Source: Euglena gracilis
Taxonomy: Eukaryota
Assembly: GCA_039621445.1 (NCBI GenBank)
Contig: CP154954.1
Span: 23,386,954 to 23,450,953, forward strand
DNA length: 64,000 nucleotides
Reading direction: 5' to 3'
Each line of letters opens with the position of its first letter. Within the stretch, counting starts at the first letter, position 1. This document shows, piece after piece, positions 1 through 46,419 of this stretch. Below the pieces are notes generated by a model that saw only the letters and a program-made list of their open reading frames with translations, searched no databases and was not told the DNA's origin. The translations under genes and the position numbers were made by a program.

Positions 1-922
1 TTCCCGCGAAAATTTTTCAGATTCGCGAATGTCGCGATCTGAATCGCGGAAATCACGATCGGAATCATGATTACCATGATTTCCGCCCGCGAAAATTTTT
101 CAGATTCGCGAATGTCGCGATCTGAATCGCGGAAATCGCGATCGGAATCATGATTACCATGATTTCCGTCGCATTTCTCGCGAAAATTTTTCAGATCCGC
201 GAATGTCGCGATCTGAATCGCGGAAATCGCGATCGGAATCATGATTACCATGATTTCCGTCGCATTTTCATGCGAAAATTTTTCAGATCCGCGAATGTCG
301 CGATCTGAATCGCGGAAATCGCGATCGGAATCATGATTACCATGATTTCCGTCGCATTTCCCGCGAAAATTTTTCAGATGCGCGAATGTCGCGATCTGAA
401 TCGCGGAAATCGCGATCGGAATCATGATTACCATGATTTCCGTCGCATTTCCCGCGAAAATTTTTCAGATTCGCGAATGTCGCGATCTGAATCGCGGAAA
501 TCGCGATCGGAATCATGATTACCATGATTTCCGTCGCATTTCCCGCGAAAATTTTTCAGATTCGCGAATGTCGCGATCTGAATCGCGGAAATCGCGATCG
601 GAATCATGATTACCATGATTTCCGTCGCATTTCCCGCCAAAATTTTTCAGATTCGCGAATGTCGCGATCTGAATCGCGGAAATCGCGATCGGAATCATGA
701 TTACCATGATTTCCGTCGCATTTCCCGCGAAAATTTTTCAGATTCGCGAATGTCGCGATCTGAATCGCGGAAATCGCGATCGGAATCATGATTACCATGA
801 TTTCCGTCGCATTTCCCGCGAAAATTTTTCAGATCCGCGAATGTCGCGATCTGAATCGCGGAAATCGCGATCGGAATCATGATTACCATGATTTCCGTCG
901 CATTTCCCACGAAAATTTTTCA
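1..922 (+). repeat. 91-bp tandem satellite, about 10 units, runs off the left window edge
   Basis: Unit GATCGGAATCATGATTACCATGATTTCCGTCGCATTTCCCGCGAAAATTTTTCAGATTCGCGAATGTCGCGATCTGAATCGCGGAAATCGC repeats head to tail; ORF-track starts recur every 91 nt (333, 424, 515, 606, 697, 788). Confidence 0.97.
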
Positions 923-3834
923 ACAGGCCCAGACCGTTACAGTTTGCGTGTGAGGTTGGATTGGCTGATCGTCTTTCCCCGTCTGTGGACCACCAGCGAT
1001 CTTGATGACTCAAATGACTCCCTGTCGGACTATTATTCTTGTGCTGCCACAAAAAATTTCCACATGGCAGAAACAGTTGGCACCATACACCTCCGCACTG
1101 CATGCCCACACGGGGGGAAGAAGCCGGAAGACGCATATCTGAAGACGGGGCGAGGTGATTCCCTGACAACAATGGGTGATGTGGAAACCAATCCAGGCCC
1201 GCTGACGGCATTTAATGGACCCTGTGGTGAAGTCATGGATCTATTGGACCAACTTGTTGCCATGAACATGACTGATTTCTTTCGGATCAAGGCTAAAATA
1301 CCACTGCGGCAAGGCCCCGATGGCTCCTCCCGTTCACTTCTTCCCAGAGCTACATACTGGCTGAAATGCACTTTGTGTGACATTGAAACCATCACTGCCT
1401 CGGCAGGTTGGTGCCTGCACCACAGGGAAACCTGCCCTGTTTTTTCAGCCACAGTATATCCATCTACTGAGACAGCAAAAGTACACTCCGTAACAAGCCG
1501 AGGATACCCCCAAGAACAAGCTCGGGAAAGGTTTTCAGAAGGACACCAGCCGAATGGAAGGGGGGAACGAATCACCACCCATGGTGACGTCCAAACACAA
1601 CCAGGGCCCATCTACTTCCGTCTGGCCACCATGGAAAGACCGACAATCCCTATCCCCAGGGGATTTCAAGAAAATTTCATTCGGCACAGACTGCTGGCGA
1701 GCCTTCAAGAGGTGGATGCAGAACTTCAAACTTTCCGAGACACCTTCCCTTCCGATGTCCTTGTTGAGGACGCTACCGTCTATGAGCTCACCGAATGTTG
1801 GGAAGTTTTGAGAGGAGTTCTGTTTGTGCTCATAGGGCTATGGCCACATCGACCACCACGTCACGACTCCCCATCGAGTGTGCATGCCATTATGTGGTTG
1901 CTGACCTGTTTATGGTCCGAAGTATGCAACATCGGCGAGGCCTTTCACTTCTACCTGCCCCCTATTCACCTAATGGCACTACCCAACGTTCTCCGGCCGA
2001 GAGGCACTTTCCCCAGAGTACCTCCAACGGAGCCCTCCTCGTCCGACCTCTGCCCATTGAATGTACACACCGTTGATATCCTGGACATCATGGCCTTGTT
2101 ACGTCCGACAAGATCAGTAGTTTCAGTTGACCGTCACATCCGGAGGGCACGACGGACAGCACAAAGACGACCAAACCACCAACGAGGTGACATAGGCCGT
2201 AACAACGCTGTCATAGCCGAGAGGCCCACACACCAAGATGTCACACTTTGTGGTGACGTTCACCTCGAGCCAGGACCTATTTACGGATAACCCCTCGTGA
2301 AGGACCCCTATCCCTGCGACCTAGCACCCGGCCCCATTGCCGACGACCAACCAACCAACCAGGGCCTTCTAAGTTGTCAGATGTGGCCCCAGGGCACGCC
2401 AACCACGTACGGCAACCGATTGACCACGAAAAAACGCGGTATGGGTACAGTCCTCCCCGATGTGGCAGGGGCAAAAGCCTTGCCAGTTGTGGCGACATTG
2501 AAAGCAACCCAGGTCCCACAGAAACCCGCCCTCCCCAGCAGGAGGACGTCGAAATGGCCTCAGCCGCACAGACCTTTGCTGTGCCGCCGACGGAGGTACC
2601 ACTCCTTGGATCTTGGTTTCCAATGCACTCAACGCCGCTGTTCTCGCCTACTTTGTCCCAGGCTATAATGCCGTTTCCCAGTTTGAACGGGGGCCCCGGG
2701 GCACCTGCAGCAGAACAAATCATGGTCATTGACGAACTAGAGTCCCGGGTGCGCTCAGCGATTTCCGAAATTCACGGGTGTGCGCCACAGGGCCAGGGGT
2801 TGATTGAGAATTTTGTGCCGTCCTCACCACAAGGGCAAGAGCAAGAATGCCAAAATGGTCGAAGGCCGCAGCCCCCCGTGGTTCCAGCACTAGCGCAGTC
2901 CTCGATGAACGCTGATACGCTGCAAGTCACTCCCTTCTCGCAACCTTGCCCAGCAATGCAGCCATCTTGGGAAGAAATTTCCCAAGACACTCGGGGCACG
3001 TTGGTCCATATCCCACGGGGAGCGTTGCGAAACGTTGGGCTCGCCTTCTGCAGCACCCTCAGTCGCTTTGTGTCAAAGCCAGGATGGGAGACCCTACACG
3101 CACTTTGGTGCTTCCCAAAAGCTGTGCTTGCTCCATTGAAGCGGAGCGGGAAAAGCCATTGGGCTGCAGTTGGACGGAAAATTACTGAGAGAGCCAATGC
3201 CTACCTCAACCGGTCCACAGAAGATTCGTGGGATGAGACTCGCCAAATTCGTGATGCACAAAACCCAAAGAAGAGAACACGAAGTCAGACAAAAAATTTC
3301 GATGCTGAAAGCCAAGAAAGATTGTGCAACCGTGTTCAAAGCCTTGTCAGCCATGGGGCGGTCAGTAAAGCCTGCCGCATGCTGACTTCTGATGGAATCC
3401 AAGATGCAGACGACCCGCTAATCTTGGAACGGTTGGCTGCCTTGCACCCTCCTGAACCCCAACCTGGAAGGCAAAATCTGCCTCCGGACTTCCCTCGCCT
3501 CGAATTCGATCTCAGTGAAGATGCAACCAGGGAGCGCCTAATTCAAATACGGAAAGCAGTCATGTCTTTCCCGAAGGAGTCCTCACCAGGACCGTCTGGA
3601 CTTCGTCCAGATCATCTTAAAGACATGCTCTCTGATCCCCTGGGGACACAATCAGAACAACTCCTCACAATTTTGGACCAATTCTTCCGAACATGTTTGA
3701 CAAACGGAAACCACAACTCTGCGGCATGGATTTTCGCTGGTGCCCGTTTGACTCCTCTTCAAAAACCCTGCAATCCAAGCGAAAACCTTGATGAGCTTGG
3801 CAATACCAACCCCATTCATGACCCAAAGAAGGAT
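923..3834 (+). pseudogene. 5' part of the CRE-like ORF: 2A-like peptides, a Cys/His zinc-finger-like segment and pre-RT region
   Basis: ORFs 788..2290, 2297..2668 (same frame, across a stop) and 2374..3888 (frameshift). Motifs GDVETNPGP, GDVQTQPGP, GDVHLEPGP, GDIESNPGP and CTLC...HHRETC. Confidence 0.8.
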
Positions 3835-4474
3835 AGTTTCCTGAATGGTGTTGTTTTTTGCCCAGCCTTCACTCCCGGGGGTCCGTGAGGGGGTACCGGC
3901 GGGGTGGGGGGTAGGCGCGATGGGCTCTGGGGAGAGGGGTAGGTTCGGGATACTCCCCTTCCCACGTAGGATTTTTTCCCGGGGACCGAAGGCCCTCCTT
4001 TTTGGGGAGTGGTTGGAGGGGGGAGTCCGGCTTGGCGTCCCTTCTGGCAGTGGGGGGGTTTAGGAAAAGGCCTGGTTAGCCTCCCCTAGGCTTCAGATAC
4101 CCCAGCACCAACACCTTTTTGGCTTGTACTGCTCTCCTGCGCCAGCAGATAGCCAATCTTTTTTGTAATCTTTTGCTTGCTCCGCCCTTGGGATTTTGAT
4201 TTTCTTGAACTTTTGCACTTTCTTGGCTCCAGTGCCTTTCCTTGAATTCCCTTGAAATTCCTTGAAAATTGATATAATTTGACCTTGGTCTTGATTCAGC
4301 AAGCACAATCTTGAATTGAAACCATAGATAAGAAAGAGGGAGCCTGCAGTAAAAAACAGAACAGTTAGAGAGCGGTTTGCGCTATTTTGATGCTAAATTA
4401 GCGCAGTGGTTCGCTATATACAACAGCAGGCTGTAATAGTGGCAATAGAAGGTGCAGCGGCCGGTCCGCCAACT
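3835..4474 (-). repeat. 3' LTR of element A (640 bp)
   Basis: Matches 15698-16336 except for 4 substitutions and a 1-nt homopolymer indel seen by eye; termini AGTT...AACT. Confidence 0.97.
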
Positions 4475-4485
4475 CTCCCCTTCCT
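4475..4485 (-). promoter_or_regulatory. Polypurine tract of element A
   Basis: Minus strand AGGAAGGGGAG directly precedes the 3' LTR. Confidence 0.85.
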
Positions 4486-4779
4486 CGGCCTTGCCTCCGG
4501 CTGCCGGGCCTGGCCGCTGCCTCTCTCGCCCCCCTGCCACAGGAGCCTGGCCGGGGCTCCCCGGTCCTTCGTTGCGCCGCTGCCTGGCGTGCCGGCTGCG
4601 GGCGGGCTCCTGTGGTCCGGGTTGGGGTGGACGCCAGCCAATCCCTGGCCGTGCTCCGCAGGCGTTCGGTGAGCGTCGCTGCTGACGTCGTCCGGCCTTG
4701 CGGGCTGGCCTCAGGAATTGGCTGGGCTCGGGCTTTGGCTCTCCTTGGCGCTCCTTGGTGGGTGGTCTTGTCTGGGTTC

Positions 4780-5530
4780 GGTGCCCCCCCCCCCCCTTTG
4801 GGGCTGACGGTCCCCCTGGCCGCCGTTTTTTTTTTTTTTGCCGGCCCCCCTGGGCCGTGCGTGCCCCCCCCCCCGGGTGGTCTTGGGCGGCCCCCCTGGG
4901 CCGCTTTTCGGCGCCTCCCCCCCTGGGGTCTGGGCGGCCCCCCTGGGCCGGTTTTCGGCGCCCCCCCCCCCTGGGGTCTTGGGCGGCCCCCCTGGGCCGT
5001 TTTTCTGCCCCCTCCCCCCCCCCGCGGGGCGGTGGGGGGCCCCCCCTCGGCCGCTCCTTGGGTTCCCCCCCCCCCGGGTGTGGGCGCGGCCCCTTGGCCG
5101 CTTTTTTTTTTTTTTTTTCCGGCCCCCCTGGGCCGTTCGTGCCCCCCCCCCCCCCCGGGTGGTTTTGGGGGGCCCCCCCGGGCCGCTTTTGCGCCCCCCC
5201 CCCCTGGGTCTGGGCGGCCCCCCTGGGCCGCTTTTCGGCGCCCCCCCCCCCCTGGGGTCTGGGCGGCCCCCCTGGGCCGTTTTTTCCCCCCCCCCCCCCC
5301 CCCGGGGTCTGGGCGGCCCCCCTGGGCCGCTCTTAGGCGCCCCCCCCCCCCCGGGTGTGGGCGCGGCCCCCTGGCCGCTTTTTTTTTTTTTTTTTGCCGG
5401 CCCCCCTGGGCCATGCGTGCCCCCCCGCCGGGGTGGTCTTGGGCGGCCCCCCTGCCGCTCTTGGGTGCCCCCGGTCCGGGTCCTTTGGTCTTCCCTGGGT
5501 CCCCTGGGCCCCCCCGGGGTCGGTTGGGTT
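4780..5530. repeat. GC-rich ~40-45 bp minisatellite in the 3' non-coding region of element A
   Basis: Recurrent GGGCGGCCCCCCTGGGCCGCTTTT...CCCCCCCC units with variable homopolymer lengths; base calls may be noisy. Confidence 0.75.
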
Positions 5531-5846
5531 TCCCCCCTTGGGTCCCCTTTCTTTCTCCTTTCCTCTCCTTCTTTGCTCGCCTCTCCCCGGGGCTTTCGCC
5601 CCCGTGCTTCGTCGCTCTCCTCTCCTCTCCTCTCTCTCTCCTCTCTGGGCTCTCTCCGGTCTCCCTTCTCCTGGCTCGGCCTCGGCCGGGCTCACCGTGG
5701 CTCAGCCTTGGTTGGGGAAGAGAAGGGAGGGGTGGCACACCAGTAAGAGGTTGGGTTGGTGGGTGAGAGCCTCCACAGTATCCATCAGGTCAGTAGGGGG
5801 TGAGCCAGCTGCCGCCGACATCACCGCATCTCCTCACGACGACAGC

Positions 5847-8800
5847 TCAGCTCCTGCGCGCGCGCTGCCAGCCGCCTGTCCTGAGCGTCGAAGGAGAGGG
5901 GAAGGAACAGAAAGATGAACTGGAACACGACCACCATGGAGAAAATCCCAGGTTGACGCCAGGCCTTTTCCATTTCCCCATGGGGTGTGGGCAGGGGGCG
6001 GGGGTGGCCTCCTTGTTGGGAAGGAAGGGCCGGGTCGCACCGTGGCCATGCAGGGGCACGCCTCCGGTGGTGGTGCCCCCTCGCCGCAGGGACGGGTCAT
6101 GGGGGTGCACGGGAACGGGGCCCCCTGGTGGGAGGGGGGGATCCCGAGCTGGGGCGTCCCTGCGGGTCGACACGCGGGGGCGGCGACCTCTACCCGTGGG
6201 GGCAGGGGAGACTCGGGGACCGGGTCTCTGAGGTACGCCTGGACTGCGGGGTGGGTACGCGTGTGATATGGGGAGTGATGGGGTGGTGGACGGTGGAGCT
6301 GGGGCAAGGGAAGCGCGGGAGAGCACATCCCTCGCAGACGCGGATCGCACGGAGACGGGGCGCTTGCCGCTCGCGGGCTGCCGGTGGACCCTGACCGGGT
6401 ACCTGGGGTGGGCCGCTTGTTGGGGACCCGCCGGGCCAACATCTCCTCCGTCTTCTTGGTCTCGATCTCCTTCGTCTCCTCCATCACCTTCATCATCGTC
6501 TCCAGCAGAATCATCACCTTCTCGACATACATCTCCGTCCTCGGGGTCCTGCCACATCCACTCCTCTGGTGGCTCCTCCCAGGACAGCCCAAACTCCTTC
6601 TCCTTCTCCTTCTCGATCTCCACAGCGTGGCAGATGGCGATGTGGGCTTCCTCCGGGAACCTCGAAAGGTACTTCATGATGTCCTCCTTGATGTCGTGCT
6701 CGACGAAGTACGACACGATGGGGGAGGCGTACCGGTGGAAGAAGTGCCGCAGCGGCTCCCACGTCTTCTCCTCGTACCCCAGCCACTTGACGAGGAACTC
6801 GAGGTCGCCGTTGGCATCGCGCCGGTGGGTGACCACCGCCTCCACTTCCCACTCGTCCAGCCGGGAACCCTCCTCCGGCCTGGATTGGCGGAAGTGGAAG
6901 AGACGGAGCGGTGGCCCCATGAGGGCTGGATCGTGGCGGTAGCTCTTGATTTGAGATCGGTGGGCCACCTGCTTCCGGCCATCCTCCATCTGGAGCACGT
7001 ACGTGTGCTCACTGGTGCGCTCTGCCACCACGCACGGCCCGATCCAGTACGTCTCCAGCTTCTCGCCGGTGCGGGTGCGCGGGCGGAGATACCAGACCTT
7101 GTCGTTGATCTCCAGCTCCGGCAGCTCTTTCCTCCTCTTGTTGACCGCCTCGGCTGTCTTGGCGTGCTCCTCGTTCAGGATCTTCGCAACACGATGATCG
7201 ATGTCCTGCATGCGCTCGAAGAAGGCCACCGCGTCCTCGGCCCGCGTGGGCGGCTGGTACGGCACCCCGCCATACCACCGCTCGCGGCCGAAGAGCACCT
7301 GGAAGGGGCTCAGGCCGCTGGGCCCAGCACTGTCGTGCAGGGTCCGCAGGGCCCGCGGCAGCGCCTCCGGCCACTCCACGCCCTCCGCCGCCTTCATCTT
7401 CCTCAGCCGCTTCTGGATCTGCGCGCCGAGGACCTCCGCACGGGCGTTGCCCTCGTGGTGGTATGCTTGGGAGAAGGCATGGCGCACCCCCAGTCTTGCA
7501 CACATTGCCCTCCACCAGGCCCCCACGAAGTGGGGGCCCCGGTCCGACGTGATGACGCTTGGCACGCCGAACTGCGCCCACTGCTCATACATAGCCTTAG
7601 CCACCGCCTCCGCCGTTAGCCCGCGGGTGTGGTGCACGGTTGCGATCGCCCAGCCGGAGTGCCGATCGATGCATGCTGCGAACACGTTCACCAGCTTGCC
7701 GCCCTCCACCTCCACCTCCGGCATCTGGAACAGATCCACGCTCACCGAACACATCACATGGGGCGGCACTGGCGTGGGCGTGATGCGGAGCCGGAGGGGT
7801 TGGTGGGGGTGCTCTGACGCCTGACAGAACTCACACACGGCCAGAATCTTGCCCGCCAGCTCGCGTGCTCGGGAGGGCACCGCAAACTGGAAGTTCCGGC
7901 TGGCCTCATCGAGGAGGCGCTCACCACCGACGTGCCCCGACGCCCGGTGCTGCTCTCGGATTGCCCGCTCGGTCAGGGCATCCGGCACGCACCAGACGGA
8001 ATCCTTCACCAGCTTGCCTGCCTCCTTCCGGTAGCCGGTGGGCCATGGCCGGCCGCGCTTGATGGCCTGCCACGGCTCTTTGAACGTTGGGCACTTCTCA
8101 TACGCCTCACTCCAGTCCATCGCCATCAGGTCCTGGTCCTCTTCTTGCGGGGCTGCGGCCGGGGTGGCTGCAGCTGGCGGCACGGCGGCTGCCACAGGCG
8201 GCACGGCGGCTGCCACCGGCGGCACGGCGGGAGGGCTGGGGTGCCCCCCCACCTTGGGTGGGCCGGCCGACGGCACCGCTCCTTCGGCTGGCTTCTTTGG
8301 GACGACGGTAACGAGCGGGGTGGCGACGGCCTGGCTTCGGGTTGTCACGGCGATCGCTGCGGACGGTAGGATGCTGCGTGCGCTGGCCGCGGGCGGGGAC
8401 GATGCTTGCTCGGCGGACGGGGATCGCACGGCGGGTGCTGCTGCCGGTGCCGCTGCTGGCCGTACGGAAAACCGCACGGTGCGTGGTGTGGCGGGCTGCT
8501 GCTGCTGCTTGGGCTGCGCGGACAACGCCGGGTGCTGCGGCTGCTCGGGCTGCCCGGGCGATGCCAGCGCTGTCGCACTGGGCACTCGCACGGTCGGTGC
8601 TGCAGTCGCAGCCGGCGCGGTGGGGTGCGGTGGGGGCGGCGGTCGGATTGCCGGACTTCCGGCTGCCGGAATCCCGGCGGGCGCCACCTCGGATGCCGGT
8701 GTCCCGGCCGATGCCGCCGTGGCTGCCGGTGTCCCGGCTGGCGACGATGGGGATGCCGCATTTGCGGTCGGGAGGGGGCACACCTTGTCCACCGGGTGTA

Positions 8801-11800
8801 CTGCCTTCGGGCAGCTGCGCTCCGCGGCCTTCTCCTCTCGGATCTGCTGCTCCATCTCCTCGGCGTCCGCTGCCGTCCCGTGCCAGCAGGAGTCTCGGTA
8901 CTCCTGGCTGGCCGGGTACGCCCACCGCGACAGCGCGTCCCCCACCTCGTTCTTCTCCCCCGGCACGTACACCACCTCCACCATGTGCTCGTTCAGCTTG
9001 GAGTGCCACCTCGCCCGCCGGCCTTGCGGTCCCGCTCCTCGGGCGACGTGCTCCTTGTACCAGCTTTCCAGGGACCGGTGGTCCGTCAGCACCAGCACCT
9101 TCTGCCCGGTGATGTAGCCGCCCCACTTGTCCAGCGCGCTCACCACCGCGTACGTCTCCTTGTAGCTGGTGTCCCACCGCAGCCGCTGCCCCTCCGTCAG
9201 CTTCCTGCTCATGAAGCCCACCGCCACCGACGCCCCGGGCTTCAGGAGCTCCTCCACCGAGGGGATGCCCTCCACCTTCGGCAGCTGCTCCAGCACGGCG
9301 CCCACCGCGTAATCGGAGGCGTCTGTGCGGAGCACGAACGGCTTGTTCATGTCCACGTGCCACAGCTCCAGGTCCGCCACCAGCGCTGCCTTCAGCTTCT
9401 CGAACGCCTCCAGCTCGGCCGCGGACCACACGATGGGGTGCTTGCTGCCCGCCCGGGACAAATCCCGTGGTAGCTTCAGCTTCTCCTGCAAGGGGGCGGC
9501 CAGCTCCGAGTACATACGTACATACCCCGAATAATAATTGCAGAGGCCGAGAAAGGCGCGCAAACTCGTCACATTGGCCGGGGGTTGCCACCGCTGCACC
9601 GCCGCCAGCTTGCCGCTCGCGGGCACGCGCTTGCCCTCCCCCAGCACGTGCCCCACGAACTCCGCCCTCTTGCGGAACAGCTGCGCCTTCTTCTTATCCG
9701 CCACCCACCGATCCGCCTCCAGCGCCCGCAGGGTCTCACGCAGATCCCCCGCGTGCCGCCTGATCAGCTCCTCGTCGCTCCACCCCGGCAGCCGCCTCGT
9801 GCTCACCAGGATGTCGTCGAAGTAGGGGTGGGTGTGGGCGGAGACGTTGCGGCAGGTCGCGTCGATGTCCCTCTGGAGCAGCGCCGGACCGACGTTGATG
9901 CCCTGGGGCCAAACAGTCCACTGCCAGAGGCCGCCGGGCAGGTGGATGTTGGTGATGGGTCGGCTTTCCTCCGCCATGGCCACCTGGTGGAAGGCGTCCC
10001 GCAGGTCCACCGTCGAGAAGATCTCGCACTTCGCCTGCTCGCTCACGATGTCCTCCGTCAGCGGTAGGGGGTAGGAGTCCATCTGCAGCATCTTGTTGGT
10101 CAAGCTGTAGTCGCACACCAGCCTCCACTTGCCCGACTTCTTGCGGATGGGGAAGGCGGCCGCCCTCCACGGCCCCCGCCCCGCCTCCAGCTTGCCGTCC
10201 GCCAGGCACTCCCGCTCCATCTCCCTCAGGGCCTCCAGCCGCTCGCCCTTGAGGTTGATGATCCGGCCCACCACCGGGGTTGCTCCCGGCTTCAGCCTCA
10301 GCACCGCCTTCCCATGGGTGCCCCGCGCCGGGGGACACGGCCACACCCGCTCTCGGAACACCCGGCCTTCGAACTCGTTGATGATCTCGTCCCGCAGCTG
10401 CCGCGCCAAGGGATGGTCGACGTCGTCTTCTGTCTCCACTACCCCTCGCACCGCCTTCGCCGCTTCTTCGGCCTCCTTCAGCATCATCGCCACCTCTCGG
10501 ACTGCAGCCTCGTCCGTGGTCAGCTGCCGCATCTTCTTCACCGTGGAGAGGTAGCCGTCCAGCTCGTCTTCGTCTTCATCGCCATCTTCCTCCTTCTTCT
10601 CTTCGTCTCCACGCCGCCTCAGGATCCACTTGGGGTCCGCGTGGAGCTGCAAGGTGTCGCGCCATGGCTGGACATCCAGCCGGTTCTCCCGGAGCCACGG
10701 ATACCCCAGAATCAAATCCGTGCTGATGCAGCCGTCGTACGCCACCACCTTCGTCGTCCACGTCCTCGGTCTCCGCTCCTCGTCGTCGGTCTGGGCCGCG
10801 AAGGACAGCTTCAGCTCTGCTTCTCGTTGTCCTCCGGGTAGTGCTTCTCCGCTCACCGTGCGCAGCACCAAGGGTCTTGTTGCCGCGTGGAACACCGACT
10901 CCGGGAACAGCTCCTTCTTCACGAGGGAGGTCTGCGCCCCCGTATCGATCAAGGCTTTCGCCTGGATCTTCATCCCGCCTGCCTCCACCTCCACGTCCAT
11001 CAGCAGCTGGTAGCACCCCCCACGGTGCTCCATCCGGCCGACCGTGAACGGCCGGTTCGGGAGGTGCTGCCACGGCCGCACCACCACCTTCCGCACCTTC
11101 TTCGCCTCCTCCGCCGCCGCCACTTCTTCCCGTGCCTTCTCCCCCAGGCACAGGTACCGCACCACCCCCTCCGGGATGCGGTAGGCCTCCTCCCTTGTGC
11201 ACCTGCGCTCGCCGCCACTGCCTCCCAGCTGCAGCCGATGTCGTCGTACGCCGTCTGGTCCTTCCACCATGCTGCCGCACTTCCCACCACAGATGACGTC
11301 GTCCAGCTCCTTCGCCATCGCATCGCTGACCCAGAAACGGGTCGGCTTGCGATACCCGTATTCCGCGAAGCGGCAGTAGTCGATATCCACGTACCGCACT
11401 CCGCGCAGGACTCGTCGCCACCGCAGCAAGCCGAACCTCGGGTTTTCAATCCACCACCGCGTAGGCGCCAAGTACTCCACCAGCTCCCTCGTGGCCTTCA
11501 CCACCGCGTCCGCCATGCGGAGCCTCCTCTTGCGGGTGGTGAGGGCTGCGGAGTACTCGGTACAGGGCGGGGACGCCGCGATGACCTCGAAGTAGCCGGG
11601 AGCGTACTGTTCCCAGTACCTCCACTTCCTCACGTCGGCCACGATGTCCGGCTTCCACTTCTCGTCCCAGTCCACGCTGATCACCTTGAAGCCCATCTTC
11701 TCCAGCGCTCTTCTGACACTGCCCGTTCCGGAGAACAGGTCCAGCGCCCATCTTTCCTTCTCTTCCTTTGCCGCCTTCTTCACCGGCTCTTTCTTCTCCT

Positions 11801-12452
11801 TCTTCGCCGGTGCTTTCTTCACCTCCTTCGCCGGTGCTTGTCTTTCTTGTGGTGGTGTCTTGTGGAGACTTGGTGATGCCTTCGGTGATGACGTTGTCGG
11901 TGTTGTTGATGGCGATGACGTCGATGCTGTCTTCGTTGCCGATGCCGTCGGCGTTGATGTGGTCGATGATGTCTTCGTTGCCGACGCCGTCGGCGTTGAT
12001 GAGGGCGATGATGTCACCTTCGCCTTCGGCACGCTCGGTGATGTTGATGGGGACGATGGTGTCGGCTTCGCCTTCGACACCTGCCGTAGGCAGGGTCTCT
12101 CCCCTTCCTTTGGAGACTTCCTGCCTCTTCTCTTTCTTTGGACCAGCCGCCATCCTTCTTCTTCATACTCCACCGCTCTTACCAGCCTCGTCCCTGGTGC
12201 GGATGTCAGCTGGGGGGTTGACTGCCGGTCCAGGCCCTTCCCCTTCACCTGGACGGCCCCGTCATTGCTGCGTCGATGTCGTCCCGGCCGCTTCTCCTTT
12301 GCCGGAACCTTTCTCGCCGCCTTTGCCTTTCCCCTTACCCTTGCCTTTGCCTTTTCCACCATCTTTCCCCTTGGCTTCGCCGCCTTTGCCGGTCCATCCT
12401 TCATTCCACGGCTGCTGGTTGCCTTTGCCTCGGCCAGCCCAGCCTTGGGCAT
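5847..12452 (-). CDS. pol: Pol polyprotein of element A: C5-MTase, aspartic protease, RT, RNase H, Pro/Ala-rich linker, integrase, chromodomain
   Basis: Uninterrupted 2201-aa ORF with LDLFSGTG/SPPC/ENP (MTase), LIDTGA (PR), WRLVCDY, DLRDAFHQ, YFDD (RT), TDASDYAVGAVL, TDH (RH), H..GH...C..C, SVDLF, SDRG, RAE (IN), WEVEAVV...FLVKWLGY..KTWEP (chromo). True start uncertain. Confidence 0.96.
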   Translation of the reverse strand: MPKAGLAEAKATSSRGMKDGPAKAAKPRGKMVEKAKARVRGKAKAARKVPAKEKRPGRHRRSNDGAVQVKGKGLDRQSTPQLTSAPGTRLVRAVEYEEEGWRLVQRKRRGRKSPKEGERPCLRQVSKAKPTPSSPSTSPSVPKAKVTSSPSSTPTASATKTSSTTSTPTASATKTASTSSPSTTPTTSSPKASPSLHKTPPQERQAPAKEVKKAPAKKEKKEPVKKAAKEEKERWALDLFSGTGSVRRALEKMGFKVISVDWDEKWKPDIVADVRKWRYWEQYAPGYFEVIAASPPCTEYSAALTTRKRRLRMADAVVKATRELVEYLAPTRWWIENPRFGLLRWRRVLRGVRYVDIDYCRFAEYGYRKPTRFWVSDAMAKELDDVICGGKCGSMVEGPDGVRRHRLQLGGSGGERRCTREEAYRIPEGVVRYLCLGEKAREEVAAAEEAKKVRKVVVRPWQHLPNRPFTVGRMEHRGGCYQLLMDVEVEAGGMKIQAKALIDTGAQTSLVKKELFPESVFHAATRPLVLRTVSGEALPGGQREAELKLSFAAQTDDEERRPRTWTTKVVAYDGCISTDLILGYPWLRENRLDVQPWRDTLQLHADPKWILRRRGDEEKKEEDGDEDEDELDGYLSTVKKMRQLTTDEAAVREVAMMLKEAEEAAKAVRGVVETEDDVDHPLARQLRDEIINEFEGRVFRERVWPCPPARGTHGKAVLRLKPGATPVVGRIINLKGERLEALREMERECLADGKLEAGRGPWRAAAFPIRKKSGKWRLVCDYSLTNKMLQMDSYPLPLTEDIVSEQAKCEIFSTVDLRDAFHQVAMAEESRPITNIHLPGGLWQWTVWPQGINVGPALLQRDIDATCRNVSAHTHPYFDDILVSTRRLPGWSDEELIRRHAGDLRETLRALEADRWVADKKKAQLFRKRAEFVGHVLGEGKRVPASGKLAAVQRWQPPANVTSLRAFLGLCNYYSGYVRMYSELAAPLQEKLKLPRDLSRAGSKHPIVWSAAELEAFEKLKAALVADLELWHVDMNKPFVLRTDASDYAVGAVLEQLPKVEGIPSVEELLKPGASVAVGFMSRKLTEGQRLRWDTSYKETYAVVSALDKWGGYITGQKVLVLTDHRSLESWYKEHVARGAGPQGRRARWHSKLNEHMVEVVYVPGEKNEVGDALSRWAYPASQEYRDSCWHGTAADAEEMEQQIREEKAAERSCPKAVHPVDKVCPLPTANAASPSSPAGTPAATAASAGTPASEVAPAGIPAAGSPAIRPPPPPHPTAPAATAAPTVRVPSATALASPGQPEQPQHPALSAQPKQQQQPATPRTVRFSVRPAAAPAAAPAVRSPSAEQASSPPAASARSILPSAAIAVTTRSQAVATPLVTVVPKKPAEGAVPSAGPPKVGGHPSPPAVPPVAAAVPPVAAAVPPAAATPAAAPQEEDQDLMAMDWSEAYEKCPTFKEPWQAIKRGRPWPTGYRKEAGKLVKDSVWCVPDALTERAIREQHRASGHVGGERLLDEASRNFQFAVPSRARELAGKILAVCEFCQASEHPHQPLRLRITPTPVPPHVMCSVSVDLFQMPEVEVEGGKLVNVFAACIDRHSGWAIATVHHTRGLTAEAVAKAMYEQWAQFGVPSVITSDRGPHFVGAWWRAMCARLGVRHAFSQAYHHEGNARAEVLGAQIQKRLRKMKAAEGVEWPEALPRALRTLHDSAGPSGLSPFQVLFGRERWYGGVPYQPPTRAEDAVAFFERMQDIDHRVAKILNEEHAKTAEAVNKRRKELPELEINDKVWYLRPRTRTGEKLETYWIGPCVVAERTSEHTYVLQMEDGRKQVAHRSQIKSYRHDPALMGPPLRLFHFRQSRPEEGSRLDEWEVEAVVTHRRDANGDLEFLVKWLGYEEKTWEPLRHFFHRYASPIVSYFVEHDIKEDIMKYLSRFPEEAHIAICHAVEIEKEKEKEFGLSWEEPPEEWMWQDPEDGDVCREGDDSAGDDDEGDGGDEGDRDQEDGGDVGPAGPQQAAHPRYPVRVHRQPASGKRPVSVRSASARDVLSRASLAPAPPSTTPSLPISHAYPPRSPGVPQRPGPRVSPAPTGRGRRPRVSTRRDAPARDPPLPPGGPVPVHPHDPSLRRGGTTTGGVPLHGHGATRPFLPNKEATPAPCPHPMGKWKRPGVNLGFSPWWSCSSSSFCSFPSPSTLRTGGWQRARRS
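11149..11750 (-). other. DNA cytosine-5 methyltransferase-like domain within pol of element A
   Basis: Motif I ALDLFSGTGS, II/III VISVDWD...VADV, IV AASPPCTEYS with the catalytic PC, VI WIENP, VIII-like YRKPTRFW, X-like RIPEGVV. Confidence 0.9.
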
Positions 12453-15126
12453 CGTTGGAGTCCTTGGTCTCGTCCACCTTCTTCGCTTCTCCTTCCTTTT
12501 CTTTCTTCACCGCTTCCTTCTTCACTTCCTTGATGTTGGACTCCTCCTGGACTCCTTGATTGGCCTTGGTGTCGGTCTCGTCATCTTCATCTTCGACATC
12601 CACTTCCCGCTGCCATCTTGTGGGTGCCGCCGGTTTGCGGTGGGCCGGCTCGGGGTCGCCCATGGTGGCGGCCCGCTGGTCCACCCTCAGCCACCGCACC
12701 ATGAGGTCGTTGACTTGGGTGGCGGTGAACTCCACGGTGTCCGGGGCCACCCGGACCTCCACCAGACAGCTTCTGCCGGTCGTACACCACCTTGATGGCC
12801 GCCCGGTGGTCATCGTCCGCCGAGACCACCTTGATTCTTCTGCCTTGACGATCCACTTTCTTCGGCACGACGCCCGTCTCCTCCACCACCATCTCCGTCG
12901 CCTCCGCCACCGTCACATCCTCCGGTAGGCCTTCCAGGACCAGCGCCGCGTGGTCACGGCGCCGATCCTCTTCATGGGCCAGCCGCTTCCTCCATGGCTG
13001 ACCCAGCTGGTCCACCACCAGGCGGGCTAGCTCCACGTCCGTCACCGATATGCATCGCTGGGGGGGGGGGGAGGGGGAGGGGGGGGGGCGGGGTGTGGGG
13101 GTGGGGTTGGGCGGGTGTGGGGGCTTGTGGGTACGGGGGGGGTGGAGGGGGGGGGGCTTTCTTTCTTTCGGGGGGGGGGGGGGTGGGGGGGGGGGGGGGG
13201 GGGGGGGGGGTGGGGGGGGGGGGCGGGGGGGGGGGGGGGGGACAGCGCCTTGGCGTTGGCGAAGTACTCCCGCCACTCGCGCTCCATCAGCTTGCCCCGC
13301 GTCACCACCTTGAGGTGACGGAGCTTCCTTCGTAGTGCTTCTCGGTCGTCTCCACCCAGCTCCAGGTCCAGCCTCGCCCACAGCTCCTCGAACGGCATCT
13401 CGGGGTAGGTCTCCACCATCAGGTCGATGTGCAACGCCGTCGCCTCGTCCACCGTACTCCGCAGCAGCGCCACCCACTGCGCCTCGCTGAGGAGGGGGAC
13501 CATCCCCTCCACCTCGCGGAGGTAGGGGAGCCACCGCCGCCTCCATTGGGGCCAGTCCTCGGCGTTACCCGAGAACCGGCCCGGATGCCTCCCCCCGAGC
13601 GCATCCAGGAGGTGCGGTGGCAGGATCTGCAGCTGGGGAGCCCCCAACGGCAGGGTGGTTGCTTGGACTTCTCGGATGGCGGTTCCCCTCACGGGTGCGG
13701 GCACGCTCGCCCCCGCACGCATGGGGGCGGCGGTGCTGGCGGGTCGCGATGCCGGTGCATATGGATGCGACGACAGTGCGGACTGCTGCACTTGCGCGCG
13801 GGACGGTTGCGGATGGGATGGTGCACGTTGGGCCGCGGAGGACGACGGTGGACGCTGGGACACGGACAGCGGCTCTGCTCGGATGACAGCGGTGCTCGGT
13901 CACCGGGGAAATGCATATGCGGATTGCGGCATGGATATCCCTTCCCTTGCCGGGCGCGCGGTGGTTGACGATGAGGACCGCTCAGCCGGGGCTCGGGCCG
14001 CCCCCGCCGAAGCAGGCTGGGGGGCAGACTGGCAGGGATCGGCTGCCCTTCGGGTTGGCGGCGTGGTCTGAGCCGCCGAGGACACCGGGGGTCCCCCGGC
14101 TTGGCGGAGACTGGACATCTTGACAGACCACTGCTTGATCTCCTCCTTCGCCATCTGAATCTCCCTGAACAGCGCCGTCACCACTTGGTCCACTTCCCGG
14201 AGGGCCTTCTCCAAGTACACCCTGCACTTGCCCTCCAACTCCACGGAAATCCGGTCGGCCAGCTTGTTGAAATACTGTACCTGCAACGCCGGGATCTCGG
14301 TCTTGGAGTTGAGCTCCATCCGCTGCAGTCGCTCCTCCATCTGCCGCACCACCGTGGCGATCTCCTCCCGCGTCACCATGGCTCCCCGGAGACGGGCCAC
14401 CTCCACTGCCGTTTCCGGGTCCACCACCCGGGCCGCACCCTCGCCGGGGCCGGCACGCACCATCGCCGTCAAGCCTTGCACCTCTGCCTCGCGGCATCGG
14501 TGCTCAGCCTGCACGGCGGCGATTGCTTGGGCCGCCTCATCCGCCGCCTTTCGGGCGGCCGCCTTGGCTTGCGCCACTTGGCCCTCGAGCCGTCCGTGCT
14601 GGGCTTGGATGGTCTCCATGAACTGCGCGATGACCTTGCCTTGCCCCTCCGCAACTTGCCGATAGGCCGCCGCGGACGCATCCTTCGTGGCCTTGATCTC
14701 CTTGTCCATCTCCTCCAGCGCCGCGGTTGGCCAGTCATCCCACATCTCCCGGGTGCGGTTGCCCAGGAGGTCGAGCTGGGCCACCACCTGCCCGAGACTC
14801 GCCTCCACGGCGTCGATGCGGCTCGTCAACCACACCGCCACCGCCTCCGACACCCCGGGATACTCGTCCTGCATGGGCTGGTCTTGTACCGGGACTTCAT
14901 CCCCGGCACCAATCTCCTCCTGGTACATCTCGGGGGCCATATCTTCCTCGTATCCCTCACCTGCGGGCTCCGCCTCGTCGTACATCTCGAGGGTCTGCTC
15001 GTACGTCTCCTCTGCCTGGTCATACTCCACACCCGCCGCGTCCTCGTCCATCTCATCCACAATCCTTGGCATCTTGAGCGGCCGGTGGGGCGATGAGGCT
15101 TCGGAAAAGGGGTTCGTTCCCCCCAC
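12262..15126 (-). CDS. gag: Gag-like region of element A, in several frames as assembled
   Basis: ORFs 13900..15126 (acidic N-terminus, coiled-coil-like), 13042..13863 (FSGNAEDWPQWRRRW, capsid-like and resembling WDGDPTTWRQFFRDW in element B gag) and 12262..12813 (GK-rich tail). Disrupted by a G-run stretch at about 13055-13240. Confidence 0.7.
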
Positions 15127-15686
15127 ACCCTTTGATCCCCCTTGCGGCTCCCTCTGGGGGTGGTGGTGGGGGAGAACAGCAGCGCCGCTCCCGCCGCGGC
15201 CAGCAGCGGGAAGCGGGCCCGCAGCGGCGTGGCGTCCCGCGGGGACTCCAGCTCCGGCAGCTGGAGCGGCACCAGCGCGAACGCCGCCGCGGTCGCCGCC
15301 GCGGACGCCGCCGCGGACCCCCCCGGGGACGGCGTGGCTGCTGGGGTGGTGCGCAGGGAGTGGGACAGGTACGAGGGTGGGGATGGGGTGGACAGGATGG
15401 GAAATGTGAGCTGGAGTGGGAATGGGAGCTGGGGGTTTGGGCTTATCGCCTTTTCTTGAGCGGGGCTAGGTGGGGAAATGGGGGATTCTTTTTCTGCTGT
15501 GCACGCTGAGGGGGACTGAGCAGCGGCATGCGTGTGCGGGGGATTGGGATTGGGTATGGGGCGGTCTTTTTCATTTGGGGGAGTCCCATGGTGGGGGACA
15601 CCCACCACCGGGGCGGGGTGAGCCTGGGGAGCCGGATCCATCTTGTCGGTGTGATTTGTTCCCAGGAAATTTTGTTCTGTGAAAAA

Positions 15687-15698
15687 CCTCTGCTACCA
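15687..15698 (-). promoter_or_regulatory. Primer-binding site complementary to initiator tRNA-Met, overlapping the LTR by 1 nt
   Basis: Minus strand TGGTAGCAGAGG directly after the 5' LTR; complementary to the ...CCUCUGCUACCA 3' end found in many eukaryotic tRNA-iMet. Confidence 0.88.
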
Positions 15699-16336
15699 GT
15701 TTCCCGAATGGTGTTGTTTTTGCCCAGCCTTCACTCCCGGGGGTCCGTGAGGGGGTACCGGCGGGGTGGGGGGTAGGCGCGATGGGCTCTGGGGAGAGGG
15801 GTAGGTTCGGGATACTCCCCTTCCCACGTAGGATTTTTTCCCGGGGACCGAAGGCCCTCCTTTTTGGGGAGTGGTTGGAGGGGGGAGTCCGGCTTGGCGT
15901 CCCTTCCGGCAGTGGGGGGGTTTAGGAAAAGGCCTGGTTAGCCTCCCCTAGGCTTCAGATACCCCAGCACCAACACCTTTTTGGCTTGTACTGCTCTCCT
16001 GCGCCAGCAGATAGCCAATCTTTTTTGTAATCTTTTGCTTGCTCCGCCCTTGGGATTTTGATTTTCTTGAACTTTTGCACTTTCTTGGCTCCAGTGCCTT
16101 TCCTTGAATTCCCTTGAAATTCCTTGAAAATTGATATAATTTGACCTTGGTCTTGATTCAGCAGGCACAATCTTGAATTGAAACCATAGATAAGAAAGAG
16201 GGAGCCTGCAGTAAAAAACAGAACAGTTAGAGAGCGGTTTGCGCTATTTTGATGCTGAATTAGCGCAGTGGTTCGCTATATACAACAGCAGGCTGTAATA
16301 GTGGCAATAGAAGGTGCAGCGGCCGGTCCGCCAACT
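15698..16336 (-). repeat. 5' LTR of element A (639 bp)
   Basis: Direct repeat of 3835-4474. Confidence 0.97.
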
Positions 16337-18406
16337 GGATGGCACGCGACCAATTGCAGCTGGGGAATGCCTGCGCCGATTGGTGGGCAAATATTTGATG
16401 AGGCACCCAAACATCAGGGACCGCCTTAAAGAACTGCAGCCACTACAATGCGGTGTAGGGGTCCAGGGGGCATGTGAACTCATTGCTATGGGACTGCAGC
16501 AAGAAGTAAATCACCTGCACATGCAACAGGACAGCACCTGGTCTTTGTTACAGGTAGATTTCAGCAATGCTTTTAATTGCGTAAAAACAAAGACAGTCCT
16601 TGCTGAAGTGCCTAAACGCTGCCCGGAGGCGTACGTTTGGTTCGAGAGTTGCTACGCCGAACACAGCCCGCTCTTTTGTGGGTCATCACACCTTCGGGGT
16701 GCCTCTGGCGTACAACAAGGGGACCCTTGTGGCCCAGCCGGATTCGCCTTGGCGTTGCAATCTCTCGTCGAGTCCTTGCAAGACGTGGTGCCACTGCAAT
16801 TGTGGTATTTGGATGATGGACACATCCTGGGAACCCTCCCACAATTACATGCAGCAATTACAGAAATTCAACGACAGGGGACGCTACTAGGCATACACCT
16901 CAACGCAAAAAAATGCCGCCTGTGGGGCCCTGCAGCAACAGAAGCCAATCGTGCTGAAATGCCGCCAAACAGCCCACTTCGTGCAGTCCCAATCGTGAAC
17001 TACTCCCCTAATTCTGGTGTACGGGCCCTGGGAATCTCGGTATGCCATCCACAAAGCGGTGGCTTTGCGGGGGAAAGTGTCGGCTGAACGTGCAACAGGT
17101 GTGCAGAAAGCTTGCCGGGCCCTTTTGAACCTGCCGCAAGCCCATATTCAGTTCTGTCTCTTACGAACGTGCCTAGATGCATGCAAAGTTAATGACCTCG
17201 TGCGTGCAACAGAACTGGGGCAGGCAAATGACGCATGTGCTCTGTTGACCAAAGAAATCAGGAACACAATGAGCAACATTGTTGGATCCCCAATCGATGA
17301 CAACCAATGGGCTCAGGCCACCCTACCCGTGCGTCATGGCGGACTCGGAATTCGGGACCCATCACTGGAACGTCTCCCAGCACGTATATCCGGCATTGTG
17401 ACGTTTGTCAGCAATGGCAGACGCACCCTGGGCCTGGCAGACCGAGGAGTACCGAAAGACACTGCGGAGTTCCTGTCCTCTGCCAACTCCATCCTCGAAG
17501 GAACTCCCCCAACGCAAACATGGGCCGCGGATGTATCACTGCTGAACGAAGCCCAAAGCCCTCACATTCAACAGAAGTGGTGGGGTGAATGCTTTGCGAA
17601 ACAACGACAAAAAGTATTATCCTCTAACCTTCACGGTCAAGACGCCGTCCGGTTCGCAAGCCAACAGCGGCCCCACGCAATGGCCTGGGCTTCTGTCACA
17701 CCATCCTCTGGACTGAAAACATTGGTCGCTTCTGCCGAATTCAAAGGATTTCTAAAGTGGTCACTGGGAGCACCAGTTTGTCCACCAACGGGATCAACGT
17801 GCCCACGCTGCACCAAGCCAATGGACAACCTGGGTAATCACCTTGTATGCTGCAGCTCAAATGGCATCACGCGGCGACATGGTGCAATCCAGGAATTTGT
17901 GTTCCAACTGGCACATGATGCTGGGTTTACTGCAAAAAAAAGAACAAGGAGGTCCAGAGAGAACACGCCCGGGCGATCTCCTCATCAGCAGACTTGACGC
18001 CAATGGTCCTGGAGCAGTGGATATCACAGTGAGACACACAGCAGCACCGTACAGACCGTTGCGTGACACAGCTGAACTAACTTAATAGTATGAACGCCAA
18101 GAGAAGGAAAAACATTCAAAATATGACGCCACATGTGGGAGGATGGGATGGACCTGCATTCCATTTGTTGTTGACTGCTATGGCGGCCTAGGCCAAGAAG
18201 CGCTAACCTTAATGTCAACACTGATGAAACTTCTCCTCGGTCAACAAGATGCATGGTCAAAACGCAAAACTGAAGCCGACACATGGCAACTTCTATCAAT
18301 AACTGTTGCGCGAGAGATCGCGCGACAAGTAATCTGGGGACGGTATGCAGGCAACGACACAGATCCAGAAGTAACCAACACCATACACCAGCCGTATTGT
18401 CTGTAA
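16337..18406 (+). pseudogene. RT, zinc knuckle and restriction-like endonuclease of the CRE-like element
   Basis: ORF pieces 16314..17087, 17017..17997, 17843..18085 and 18143..18406, joined by two frameshifts and an in-frame stop; YLDD catalytic motif; PD-(D/E)xK-type RLE motif. Confidence 0.9.
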
Positions 18407-24778: not shown

Positions 24779-24966
24779 CTGACTGGCAGCGGAGGGCCCC
24801 TGCACCGTTTATACACGGTCGCAGCGTCAGCTCCCGGCTTCTAGTCAACGTCTAAGCAGACGAGCAGGCTCCGGAAGGCTCTGTACGGTATTACCTGTTA
24901 CAACCCTTCTGGTGCCAGCACAACTGCTTAGTTTTGTGGGTTTTTGCTGTTTTTGTCATCAGAAAG

Positions 24967-28731: not shown

Positions 28732-28978
28732 CAAGGGTCACTCCTCCAACCGCCATAAAGTCGGTTTCAAGATATCTTGTTTGGAGGATGACACCCCGGC
28801 TTCGGGCAGGGAGGGGGATGAGACCACGGATACCGACTTCGATGAGGCCCGCATGGCGGTGCGCACGTTGAAATCTGTTTATAGCTCTAAAAGGCCCATA
28901 GCCGGCTATTCGGCCGGTTCGTACCTGGAGTAGGGGAGCCCGAGGTCCGAGGGCACGGACCTCTGGGCTGATGAACAG

Positions 28979-46070: not shown

Positions 46071-46419
46071 GAAATATGACCAATGGGAAGAGCACTTGCA
46101 TTGAGACCAGGTGTGCTTCCACTTGGGTTGGTGGGCAGGGTTTTAGACTAATGCCATCCATAAAAAGTTACGACACGGTCCTAATTGACCACGTTGTCCA
46201 ATACGTGCATGTACATGTACACATATGCACATATATGTGGTACTCACACTGATGTAGGGGGTTGCACTCAACGGGGCTGACTATGCAAACCTTAGAGACA
46301 TCAGGCAATTCGTGAGCAAAAGTCTTCCAACCGTTTCTAAAAAAAAGTTTCCCTTGACGACCTGCCGGGCAACGGGCACACGCACCTCCAATCTTTGGGA
46401 GGTGGAGCCAGTCTGCAAA

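Follow-up and report, generated by a model that had tools for sequence, protein, structure and literature searches.

The 64-kb window analysed here (Euglena gracilis, assembly GCA_039621445.1, contig CP154954.1; the window means this whole stretch, and all coordinates refer to it) contains the remains of an R2-like retrotransposon without long terminal repeats (non-LTR), the leader of which carries four 2A (StopGo) peptide motifs in series. The left part of the element, comprising the leader and the N-terminal part of the reverse transcriptase (RT) protein, lies at 923-3834 on the plus strand and is truncated at its 5' end. The N-terminal domain of the RT-endonuclease protein, up to RT motif 1, occupies 2518-3834 (+), where HMMER matches fall on residues ~200-525 of the open reading frame (ORF) 2257-3885. 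The rest of the protein, with the RT, linker, CCHC and restriction-like endonuclease (RLE) regions, was located at 16341-18406 (+) using RVT_1, tblastn and RLE motifs. Between the two parts, a Ty3/gypsy-type LTR retrotransposon is nested on the minus strand (3835-16340), which is an insertion and not a part of the element. Published sources are cited below by accession; they were available in part, and what is said of their content refers to those parts.

Four 2A motifs and the peptides between them

The four motifs are all on the plus strand. Motif 1 (1148-1201, GRGDSLTTMGDVETNPGP) and motif 4 (2464-2517, GRGKSLASCGDIESNPGP), the latter located immediately 5' of the RT protein, have canonical cores, DVETNPGP (1178-1201) and DIESNPGP (2494-2517), each preceded by G and both fitting D(V/I)ExNPGP, the octapeptide given as the 2A core (PMC12846837). 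Motif 2 (1556-1609, GRGERITTHGDVQTQPGP) and motif 3 (2234-2278, QDVTLCGDVHLEPGP) have the variant cores DVQTQPGP and DVHLEPGP, which depart from this octapeptide at positions 14 and 16: Q at both positions in motif 2, and H14 and E16 in motif 3. Motifs 1 and 4 also have the T2A-like upstream context GRGxSLxxxG in common with the profile of the relatives described below. These results confirm the original prediction, made from the sequence alone, which had placed four motifs at these positions and had regarded the first and last as canonical T2A-like copies and the middle two as variants.

The motifs are real and non-random, and chance is excluded by pattern counts and shuffles. The pattern GD[VI]xxxPGP has four matches in the six frames of the 64-kb window, which are motifs 1-4 themselves, and no match was produced when 1141-2517 was subjected to 2000 mononucleotide shuffles. 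When the looser pattern D[VI]xxxPGP was used, a single extra match appeared in the window (23094-23162), with a stop just upstream, and the loose 2A core pattern was absent from all six frames of 671,815 bases taken from 80 loci with unrelated leaders.

Motifs 1-3 are in a single open frame (764-2290), which is closed by a TAA at 2288-2290, and motif 4 is in the next frame, in the ORF 2257-3888. The frame break is at 2279-2290 (+): a base carried by other copies after 2283 is missing here, and the frame thereby meets the TAA. The peptides between motifs 1 and 2 and between motifs 2 and 3 are 136 aa, with a CxxC..HHxxxC pattern, and 223 aa, in good agreement with the finger-like Cys/His peptide of ~135 aa and the second peptide of ~220 aa described earlier. 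The first of these contains the zinc-finger-like module at 1202-1555 (+; CTLC..x16..HHRETC), which has no Pfam match at E<=1 and can be aligned with the 2A-flanked finger modules of six relatives (P0001, P0152, P0029, P0046, P0026 and P0030). The second module, at 1610-2233 (+; 223 aa when counted with motif 3), is unrecognised: no Pfam, PHROGs or NCBIfam family and no usable Atlas match were obtained for it. It is followed by a spacer of ~60 aa between motifs 3 and 4 (2284-2463, +), which is read in the frame of motif 4.

This spacer includes a stretch (2363-2393) that had been proposed as a broken fifth 2A motif, and here the proposal fails. A frame change is needed to read it, N-P-G-P is absent, and no indel row in the aligned contigs of other copies falls on it; across the 2284-2463 spacer no indel variants were recorded among these contigs, the row at 2428 given below apart. 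At most, 2363-2393 may be an old 2A relic, and spacers of 22-54 aa between 2A motifs are also present in relatives.

The host element and its other copies

The assignment of the host to the R2-like RLE non-LTR retrotransposons is supported by several features. First, when the LTR insertion is set aside, the frame of the element runs on exactly across the junction (..HDPKKD to GTRPIAAGE..), and RVT_1 is matched at 16311-17084 (E 6.7e-13) in the ORF that continues this frame. Queries with the relatives P0005, P0069 and P0008 in tblastn cover 16341-18406 in three successive frames; the frame shifts again near 17065 and once more near 17950, and stops lie at 18083-18088. Second, the C-terminal part in the window has, in a shifted frame, CxxC..H..C and then RPGDLLIS..AVDITV, and this block aligns with the one kept by 19 relatives, CxxC-x7-GDH-x3-C, RH, E, RP(A/G)D..A(V/L)D(V/L)T(V), K. 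A C-terminal CCHC followed by a PD-(D/E)xK restriction-like endonuclease is the motif of the RLE class, and this is what is found here. For an APE (apurinic/apyrimidinic)-type endonuclease, no Exo_endo_phos family was detected at E<=0.01 in the ORFs of the window or in 15 relatives.

Third, structure comparison gives R2 proteins as the best matches. The AlphaFold2 (AF2) model of the full-length relative P0069, built with a 17-sequence alignment, has a mean confidence (pLDDT) of 83.7 and a pTM of 0.82. Foldseek places R2 proteins at every one of the ranks 1-7 for this model, with E 2.5e-21 to 8.5e-18, and ORF2p of LINE-1 (a long interspersed nuclear element) comes next, with E 2.4e-14 or weaker, down to the 1e-11 range. 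The R2 chains can be aligned from residue ~111-193 of the model to its last residue, 1037, over 702-745 residues (Z 16.3-21.2). LINE-1 ORF2p aligns well only over 89-830 (568 residues, Z up to 23.8) and only from its own residue ~248 on, that is, without its endonuclease (EN) domain, and one ORF2p row (8uw3) extends to residue 1036 with Z 16.4. By VIA Z, three LINE-1 ORF2p rows (22.6-23.8) stand slightly above R2, but over the RT core 89-830 only. When the PDB was searched by sequence with P0027, only marginal matches to LINE-1 ORF2p were obtained (E 0.02). Thus the RLE-type host assumed in the original prediction is borne out by the RT domain in the in-frame continuation, by the CCHC and endonuclease motifs and by the R2-best structural matches. 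Elements of the CRE clade are recognised by an RT that groups with CRE1, CRE2, SLACS and CZAR and by insertion in spliced-leader RNA genes; Rfam and tRNA scans of the window found no RNA family and no tRNA, a negative that says nothing either way on the CRE clade for a truncated copy.

To follow the element in other genomic copies, contigs of two DNA runs and of two RNA or possibly RNA runs were aligned on 900-3900 at >=85% identity. The DNA runs X1 and X8 gave 1513 and 681 contigs on this interval, respectively, which indicates a very abundant, high-copy family, and the same sequence is present in contigs of several independent DNA runs. After position 2283 other copies carry one extra base, seen in X8 in one contig at a depth of 1764 of 1764, and loose contig ends were found at 2281 in three contigs of X1 and one of X8. 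With this extra base, motif 3 shares its frame with motif 4 and the RT. In addition, two X8 contigs go from 3834 straight to the sequence of 16341, representing copies without the LTR insertion, and four X1 contigs have, as loose ends, element-like and non-satellite sequence 5' of 923. Since both these copies and the relative P0001 read element-like sequence upstream of 923, the copy in the window is 5'-truncated against the 91-bp satellite that adjoins it. Among possible signs of target-primed insertion, the truncation at 923 is thus shown; the search made gave no defined 3' end or target duplication for the element.

The motifs are well kept among the copies. Five indel rows were found in all in the aligned contigs (at 985, 2283, 2428, 3241 and 3854), none of them within the module 1610-2233. 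Among the 40 base differences listed (of 117), only that at 2272, a synonymous change in motif 3, lies in a motif core, and none lies inside motif 2. The conservation of the motifs among copies, the lack of which was named earlier as a refutation of the claim, is therefore supported, both by these differences and by the motifs of the relatives. The link between leader and RT, the second such point, is shown by the extra base of the other copies and by the single ORFs of the relatives.

Relatives, their motifs and their modules

A HMMER search with ORF 2257-3885 as a query gave 918 proteins at E<=0.001, matching residues ~200-525, and the best 150 were kept. A 2A-like motif is present in 19 of the 151 proteins kept. 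Of 155 proteins kept, 19 have a leader that extends 200 aa or more upstream of the N-domain; at least one motif was found in 14 and at least two in nine of these 19, where the counts include two same-cluster pairs (P0020/P0152 and P0027/P0154). Four motifs are present in P0152 and P0046, and three in P0026 and P0029. Within single ORFs, the relatives combine 2-4 motifs with the RT-RLE protein; for example, P0026 (1805 aa) and P0027 (1273 aa) have leader, RT and RLE in one ORF. Their motifs sit between modules, namely a Dam-like methyltransferase, a CxxC..HxxC finger, spacers of 22-54 aa and the RT-RLE protein, and the order of the modules varies between relatives. The last motif before the RT is canonical in eight of nine elements compared and is invariant (GRG.L..GD.E.NPGP) in eight relatives with an overall identity of 31-44%. 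The non-canonical cores of the relatives (H14, H16, Q14 and N12) are mainly at upstream sites. P0001, a second copy of the element, is the sole protein-level relative of the window leader: 208 of 227 aa are identical (92%), it has the same variant of motif 2 and the same finger module, and it extends ~196 aa further upstream.

As to their type, a profile of eight relatives searched against the whole PDB matched only C-terminal tails of recombinant proteins ending in ..GSGEGRGSLLTCGDVEENPG (7p2p_B, E 2.3e-5, and 8ut1_A), which we take to be T2A remnants of expression constructs, and the last motif of P0046, GRGSLLTCGDVEENPG, is identical to such a tail over 16 residues. P0058 and P0045 have an additional motif of the W.RDL..DG type, which is class B-like. 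With the same profile, IMG/VR contigs resembling permutotetraviruses were retrieved, which contain GRGSLVTCGDVEENPGP or RGSLLTCGDVESNPGP. Two of them have T2A-type peptides that differ very little from the motif of the retrotransposon family: one (L081) has the peptide at 3738-3842 together with permutotetravirus RNA-dependent RNA polymerase (RdRp) and A21 capsid domains, and in another (L082) the peptide is at 390-440, with an A21 capsid match only.

The methyltransferase of the relatives can be assigned from its family hidden Markov models (HMMs) and its catalytic motif. PF05869 is matched at or above its cut-off in five of eight proteins and at E<0.01 in seven of eight, phrog_111 partially in seven of seven, and TIGR01712 in seven of seven over ~50 residues only, far below the equivalog cut-off. 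The catalytic (D/N)PP(Y/F) appears as NPPF, which is invariant in ten of ten relatives. The relatives are thus predicted to encode a Dam-like adenine-N6 methyltransferase, an assignment that does not distinguish a DNA from an RNA substrate. A model of P0078 has an overall pLDDT of 53.5, with values mostly of 60-90 in residues 1-135, a dip to ~45-50 at 31-50, and less than 50 in the 2A linker. Its best structural neighbours are adenine-N6 methyltransferases (cap-specific CAPAM, KsgA/Erm, E. coli Dam, DpnM and T4 Dam). These matches are weak (Foldseek E 0.047, Z 4.6-5.8), and hence the membership in the Dam-like family is based on sequence. In P0078, P0151 and P0041, the methyltransferase is followed, with no 2A in between, by a small cysteine motif, CPRC..W.WPWDCP, and this part of P0078 (residues ~175-225) is predicted as a beta-rich domain with a pLDDT of ~57-80.

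The 223-aa module of the window matches the methyltransferase module of P0046 in length and position. As a decayed Dam methyltransferase it was rejected, since an HMM of nine relatives aligns with its 2A tail only and no family match was obtained.

Relatives having the same N-domain and RT without a 2A were also seen (P0106, P0070, P0008 and P0127). Their accessory N-terminal parts vary widely, with a PHD finger upstream in P0106 and a C2H2 finger in P0070. A remote relative of the RT N-domain that lacks 2A is present in dozens of copies on contigs as long as 355 kb (WLWD01... and WLWI01..., L005-L079) from one public record set, which suggests that such elements also form a large family in another eukaryote. 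An Atlas search with the RT N-domain pointed to no clear taxon.

Proposed StopGo separation and competing explanations

We consider that 1141-2517 is probably the leader of a dead R2-like RLE element whose working members have one ORF divided by T2A-type StopGo peptides. In working copies, one mRNA would be translated through the whole ORF, and at each ..NPG/P the nascent chain would be released without formation of the Gly-Pro bond, with the ribosome carrying on. The predicted products, in order, would be an N-terminal protein, which the 5' truncation has removed here, a CCHC-like zinc-finger protein of ~136 aa, a protein of ~223 aa, a short spacer, and an RT-endonuclease of ~1100 aa starting with Pro. 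The relatives would, by the same scheme, produce their Dam-like adenine-N6 methyltransferase together with this finger module. The motifs, their conservation across the family, the single ORF of relatives and of other copies and the R2-like architecture are shown, and skipping, its efficiency at each site and the roles of the released proteins are what we infer from them. Natural H14 and H16 variants are reported to be more than 95% active and E14Q to be 26-56% active (PMC12846837), and N16A abolishes activity (bioRxiv 10.64898/2026.09.24.754024). From these activities, motifs 1 and 4 are expected to work and should separate efficiently, and motifs 2 (Q14/Q16) and 3 (H14/E16), expected to be weak or silent, probably give partial or no separation, which would result in both fused and free middle products. 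The motifs are embedded in a long ORF and flanked by coding sequence on either side, directly for motifs 1-3, which share a frame, and through the other copies for motif 4. The polyprotein-like release proposed in the original prediction therefore gains from the frame of the other copies and from the 2-4 motifs in single ORFs of relatives, and this support is comparative rather than biochemical.

Several observations weigh against this interpretation. The copy in the window is dead: it is truncated at the 5' end, is interrupted by three frameshifts, by stops and by a nested LTR element, and can express nothing. P0001, the protein-level relative of its leader, is itself damaged, since its motif 1 reads NPGL and its frame shifts after residue 423, and beyond P0001 no relatives of the window leader were found in near-length, longer or shorter protein searches or in metagenome contigs. 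None of 80 distant metagenome loci (24-45% identity) has a 2A, and hence the 2A is not general to the wider RT family. The contigs are short, and among the 31 pieces listed (of 2227) there is none that spans two neighbouring motifs, so that for this subfamily the single-ORF reading rests on local junctions. Evidence from RNA is weak: an RNA library labelled as a leaf litter metagenome contains 13 contigs, mostly of 95-99% identity and covering parts of 1199-3427 excluding 1405-2313, and these contigs of one metatranscriptome do not prove transcription. Regarding the peptides themselves, position 16, where N16A is inactivating, is altered in motifs 2 and 3, which break the core at two positions each, and the known data cover H14 and E14Q singly.

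The strongest competing explanation, which we nevertheless consider unlikely, is that the motifs act mainly as attenuators, throttling the synthesis of the RT through stalling, with leader and RT remaining largely fused. The recent surveys speak for this and count against efficient separation. 'Reduction', that is, lower abundance, is reported for 70% of ORF1p-linked and 59% of ORF2p-linked 2A-like peptides (bioRxiv 10.64898/2026.06.17.732966), and a highly active 2A for only 43 of 580 RT-element contigs (7.4%; bioRxiv 10.64898/2026.09.24.754024), and motifs 2 and 3 of the window are indeed non-canonical. However, motifs 1 and 4 and most motifs of the relatives, such as that of P0046, match the full T2A-type peptide. 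The T2A remnant found on recombinant proteins exists because this peptide separates efficiently in expression constructs. Moreover, the motifs are placed precisely between folded modules, in linkers of low model confidence, and the back-to-back doublets, spaced by 22-47 aa, are understandable as a safeguard of separation; viral 2As in tandem are also on record (bioRxiv 10.64898/2026.09.24.754024).

It is much less probable that the leader is a functionless passenger, for example a captured fragment of an RNA virus polyprotein carried along as the element amplified, or a set of neutrally decaying 2A relics. The same type of 2A does occur in the permutotetravirus-like contigs, motifs 2 and 3 look degraded, and the 223-aa module has no detectable relatives. 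On the other hand, relatives with only 25-31% identity to ORF 2257-3885 keep the 2A at module boundaries as well as the invariant final motif, the finger module is kept across relatives, and no viral RdRp or capsid domain was detected in the leader or in the relatives at E<=0.01. In addition, the variants are common to the copies of the family and are not private to the copy in the window. Chance similarity or an assembly chimera, for which the shortness of the motif alone could be quoted, has practically no probability left and is already refuted by the absence of the pattern from the shuffles, from the rest of the window and from 672 kb of control loci, and by the recurrence of the same sequence in several independent DNA runs.

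Beyond StopGo separation as such, a broader scenario can be proposed tentatively, although we would not count on it. In an R2-like RLE lineage the single ORF may have become a StopGo polyprotein of the viral kind, having as many as four and perhaps five sites, by which the ratios of accessory proteins (the Dam-like adenine methyltransferase, the zinc-finger protein and further modules) to RT-endonuclease could be set from one mRNA, and the T2A-type cassette might reflect module exchange between RNA viruses and retrotransposons. As part of the same tentative scenario, the final site before the RT would be strictly held to the canonical core, with H/Q variants arising by drift at the sites upstream of it, and unknown modules would be swapped between sublineages.

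Comparison with known systems, and the surroundings of the element

Compared with the APE-type LINEs, in which a single N-terminal 2A is described (L1Tc/ingi; Rex1, CR1, L2, Crack and others; PMC3708506, PMC3894237), the element of the window has a similar arrangement: there is no ORF1, and the long RT ORF includes, in its N-terminal part, a StopGo peptide that would free the RT protein from what is translated upstream. It differs in that those elements combine APE with one 2A, whereas this element is RLE-type and R2-like with four motifs, and in that its relatives have 2-4 motifs which delimit whole accessory proteins. The 2A of the trypanosome elements L1Tc/ingi is reportedly the subject of a 2006 work by Heras, known to us via a citing paper. 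In the classic account, 2A belongs to RNA viruses and, as a single motif in each element, to 'young' APE-type LINEs, and the 'ancient' elements whose endonuclease resembles a restriction enzyme (REL-endo) are presented as plain single-ORF elements (PMC3708506, PMC3894237).

Among characterised elements R2 is the nearest in structure. The best Foldseek ranks 1-7 are R2 proteins (R2Bm 8gh6/8ibw, R2Tg 9nl3/9dou and R2Pm 9nl2), which align with the model over the greatest length and all through the CCHC and RLE region at its C-terminus; a single ORF is a further common feature. Unlike in R2, no ribosomal DNA (rDNA) target is seen at the element in the window, and the sequence identity of R2 to the P0069-type protein is only 13-16%. 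No 2A leader or accessory proteins are known to us in R2, although no search aimed at them was made.

With the permutotetravirus T2A and the multi-2A polyproteins of viruses the element shares the type of peptide, GRGSLLTCGDVEENPGP-like. Up to 5-7 2As per polyprotein are given for picornaviruses (PMC11512398), and in multi-2A RNA viruses motifs between functional regions and back-to-back doublets are likewise described (bioRxiv 10.64898/2026.09.24.754024). Permutotetraviruses are RNA viruses with RdRp and capsid, whereas the element of the window is chromosomal, has an RT and a restriction-like endonuclease, and is present in very high copy number.

Regarding the cargo, Dam-like methyltransferases are reported in DIRS and in Ty3/gypsy-like DAM-LTR retrotransposons (bioRxiv 10.64898/2026.05.21.726589), and the phage-Dam-like domain with NPPF in the relatives belongs to the same domain family. 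Here, in contrast, it is an R2-like non-LTR element that carries the domain, predicted as a separate product bounded by 2A, and the copy in the window is itself without a detectable Dam module (HMM, PHROGs, NCBIfam and Pfam). The terms '2A peptide', 'self-cleaving' and 'skipping' do not appear in the part of that report's text at hand.

The presence of 2A in many elements of the non-LTR-like kind has already been reported in surveys of 2025-26, and the novelty of the present case is smaller than the original prediction supposed. These surveys describe 2A in hundreds of non-LTR-like contigs (PMC12338488, bioRxiv 10.64898/2026.06.17.732966, 10.64898/2026.09.24.754024), with ~79% of the 580 RT-element contigs with 2A being non-LTR-like (bioRxiv 10.64898/2026.09.24.754024). 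Rao et al. 2025 give 'up to three instances' of 2A for a eukaryotic gene and also report dinoflagellate peptides of class B (PMC12338488). As in the relatives, N-terminal accessory domains ahead of 2A are described, including a Symbiodinium protein, together with a 'distributed arrangement' across ORFs; in particular, ORF2p-like proteins, including Dualen/RandI, have deubiquitinase (DUB) or pentatricopeptide repeat (PPR) domains ahead of 2A (bioRxiv 10.64898/2026.06.17.732966). Unlike here, RLE-type elements and methyltransferase or zinc-finger cargo go unmentioned in the main-text parts available of these surveys, and 'methyltransferase' and 'zinc finger' are absent from the available text of bioRxiv 10.64898/2026.06.17.732966. 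In the parts of the literature available, no work joining 2A with RLE-type elements or with methyltransferase cargo was found, and supplementary tables may list such elements.

The present results may therefore have the following implications. First, with four motifs per ORF compared with the 'up to three' on record (PMC12338488), the 'ancient' RLE/R2-like branch would show the fullest cellular use of StopGo found. Second, if StopGo separation is true for these elements, they would provide a set of T2A-like peptides from nature, encoded in a genome and with H/Q/E core variants among them that have succeeded in amplification, which could be used to map the core changes tolerated by the eukaryotic ribosome. 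Third, on the same condition, single-ORF retrotransposons could gain and shuffle accessory proteins, an adenine methyltransferase for instance, without a second ORF or a protease. Finally, such elements would join two lines of work from 2026, on 2A in RT elements and on Dam-like methyltransferases in retrotransposons, which do not mention each other in the parts available.

The surroundings of the element appear to consist mostly of transposable elements. The 91-bp satellite array adjoining the truncated 5' end (86-922, strand not assigned) has 9.2 units with 98% matches in Tandem Repeats Finder and no Rfam match. As a specific insertion target this satellite is unsupported, since a second array (45415-46080, minus strand) has no element attached. 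The nested LTR retrotransposon is young: its LTRs (3835-4474 and 15698-16336) are identical at 621 of 625 compared bases and it is flanked by a GGAT target duplication (3831-3834 and 16337-16340). Its internal ORF for pol, on the minus strand, contains RVT_1, RNase H, rve and Chromo domains. Upstream of the protease, this 2219-aa ORF has a stretch (10971-11810) resembling a C5 cytosine methyltransferase, with DLFSGTGS, PPC and ENP recognised by eye and a PF00145 match (E 0.001, 19 bits) below the cut-off of 22; it recalls the methyltransferase-bearing retrotransposons reportedly described by de Mendoza and colleagues. Also inside the nested element, GC-rich tandem repeats of 49 bp and 278 bp with long C and T runs (4783-5452) give rise to long spurious ORFs in several frames. 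A second Ty3/gypsy-like element lies at 24856-34046 (+), with zf-CCHC, RVT_1, RNase H, integrase and chromodomain matches distributed over several frames.

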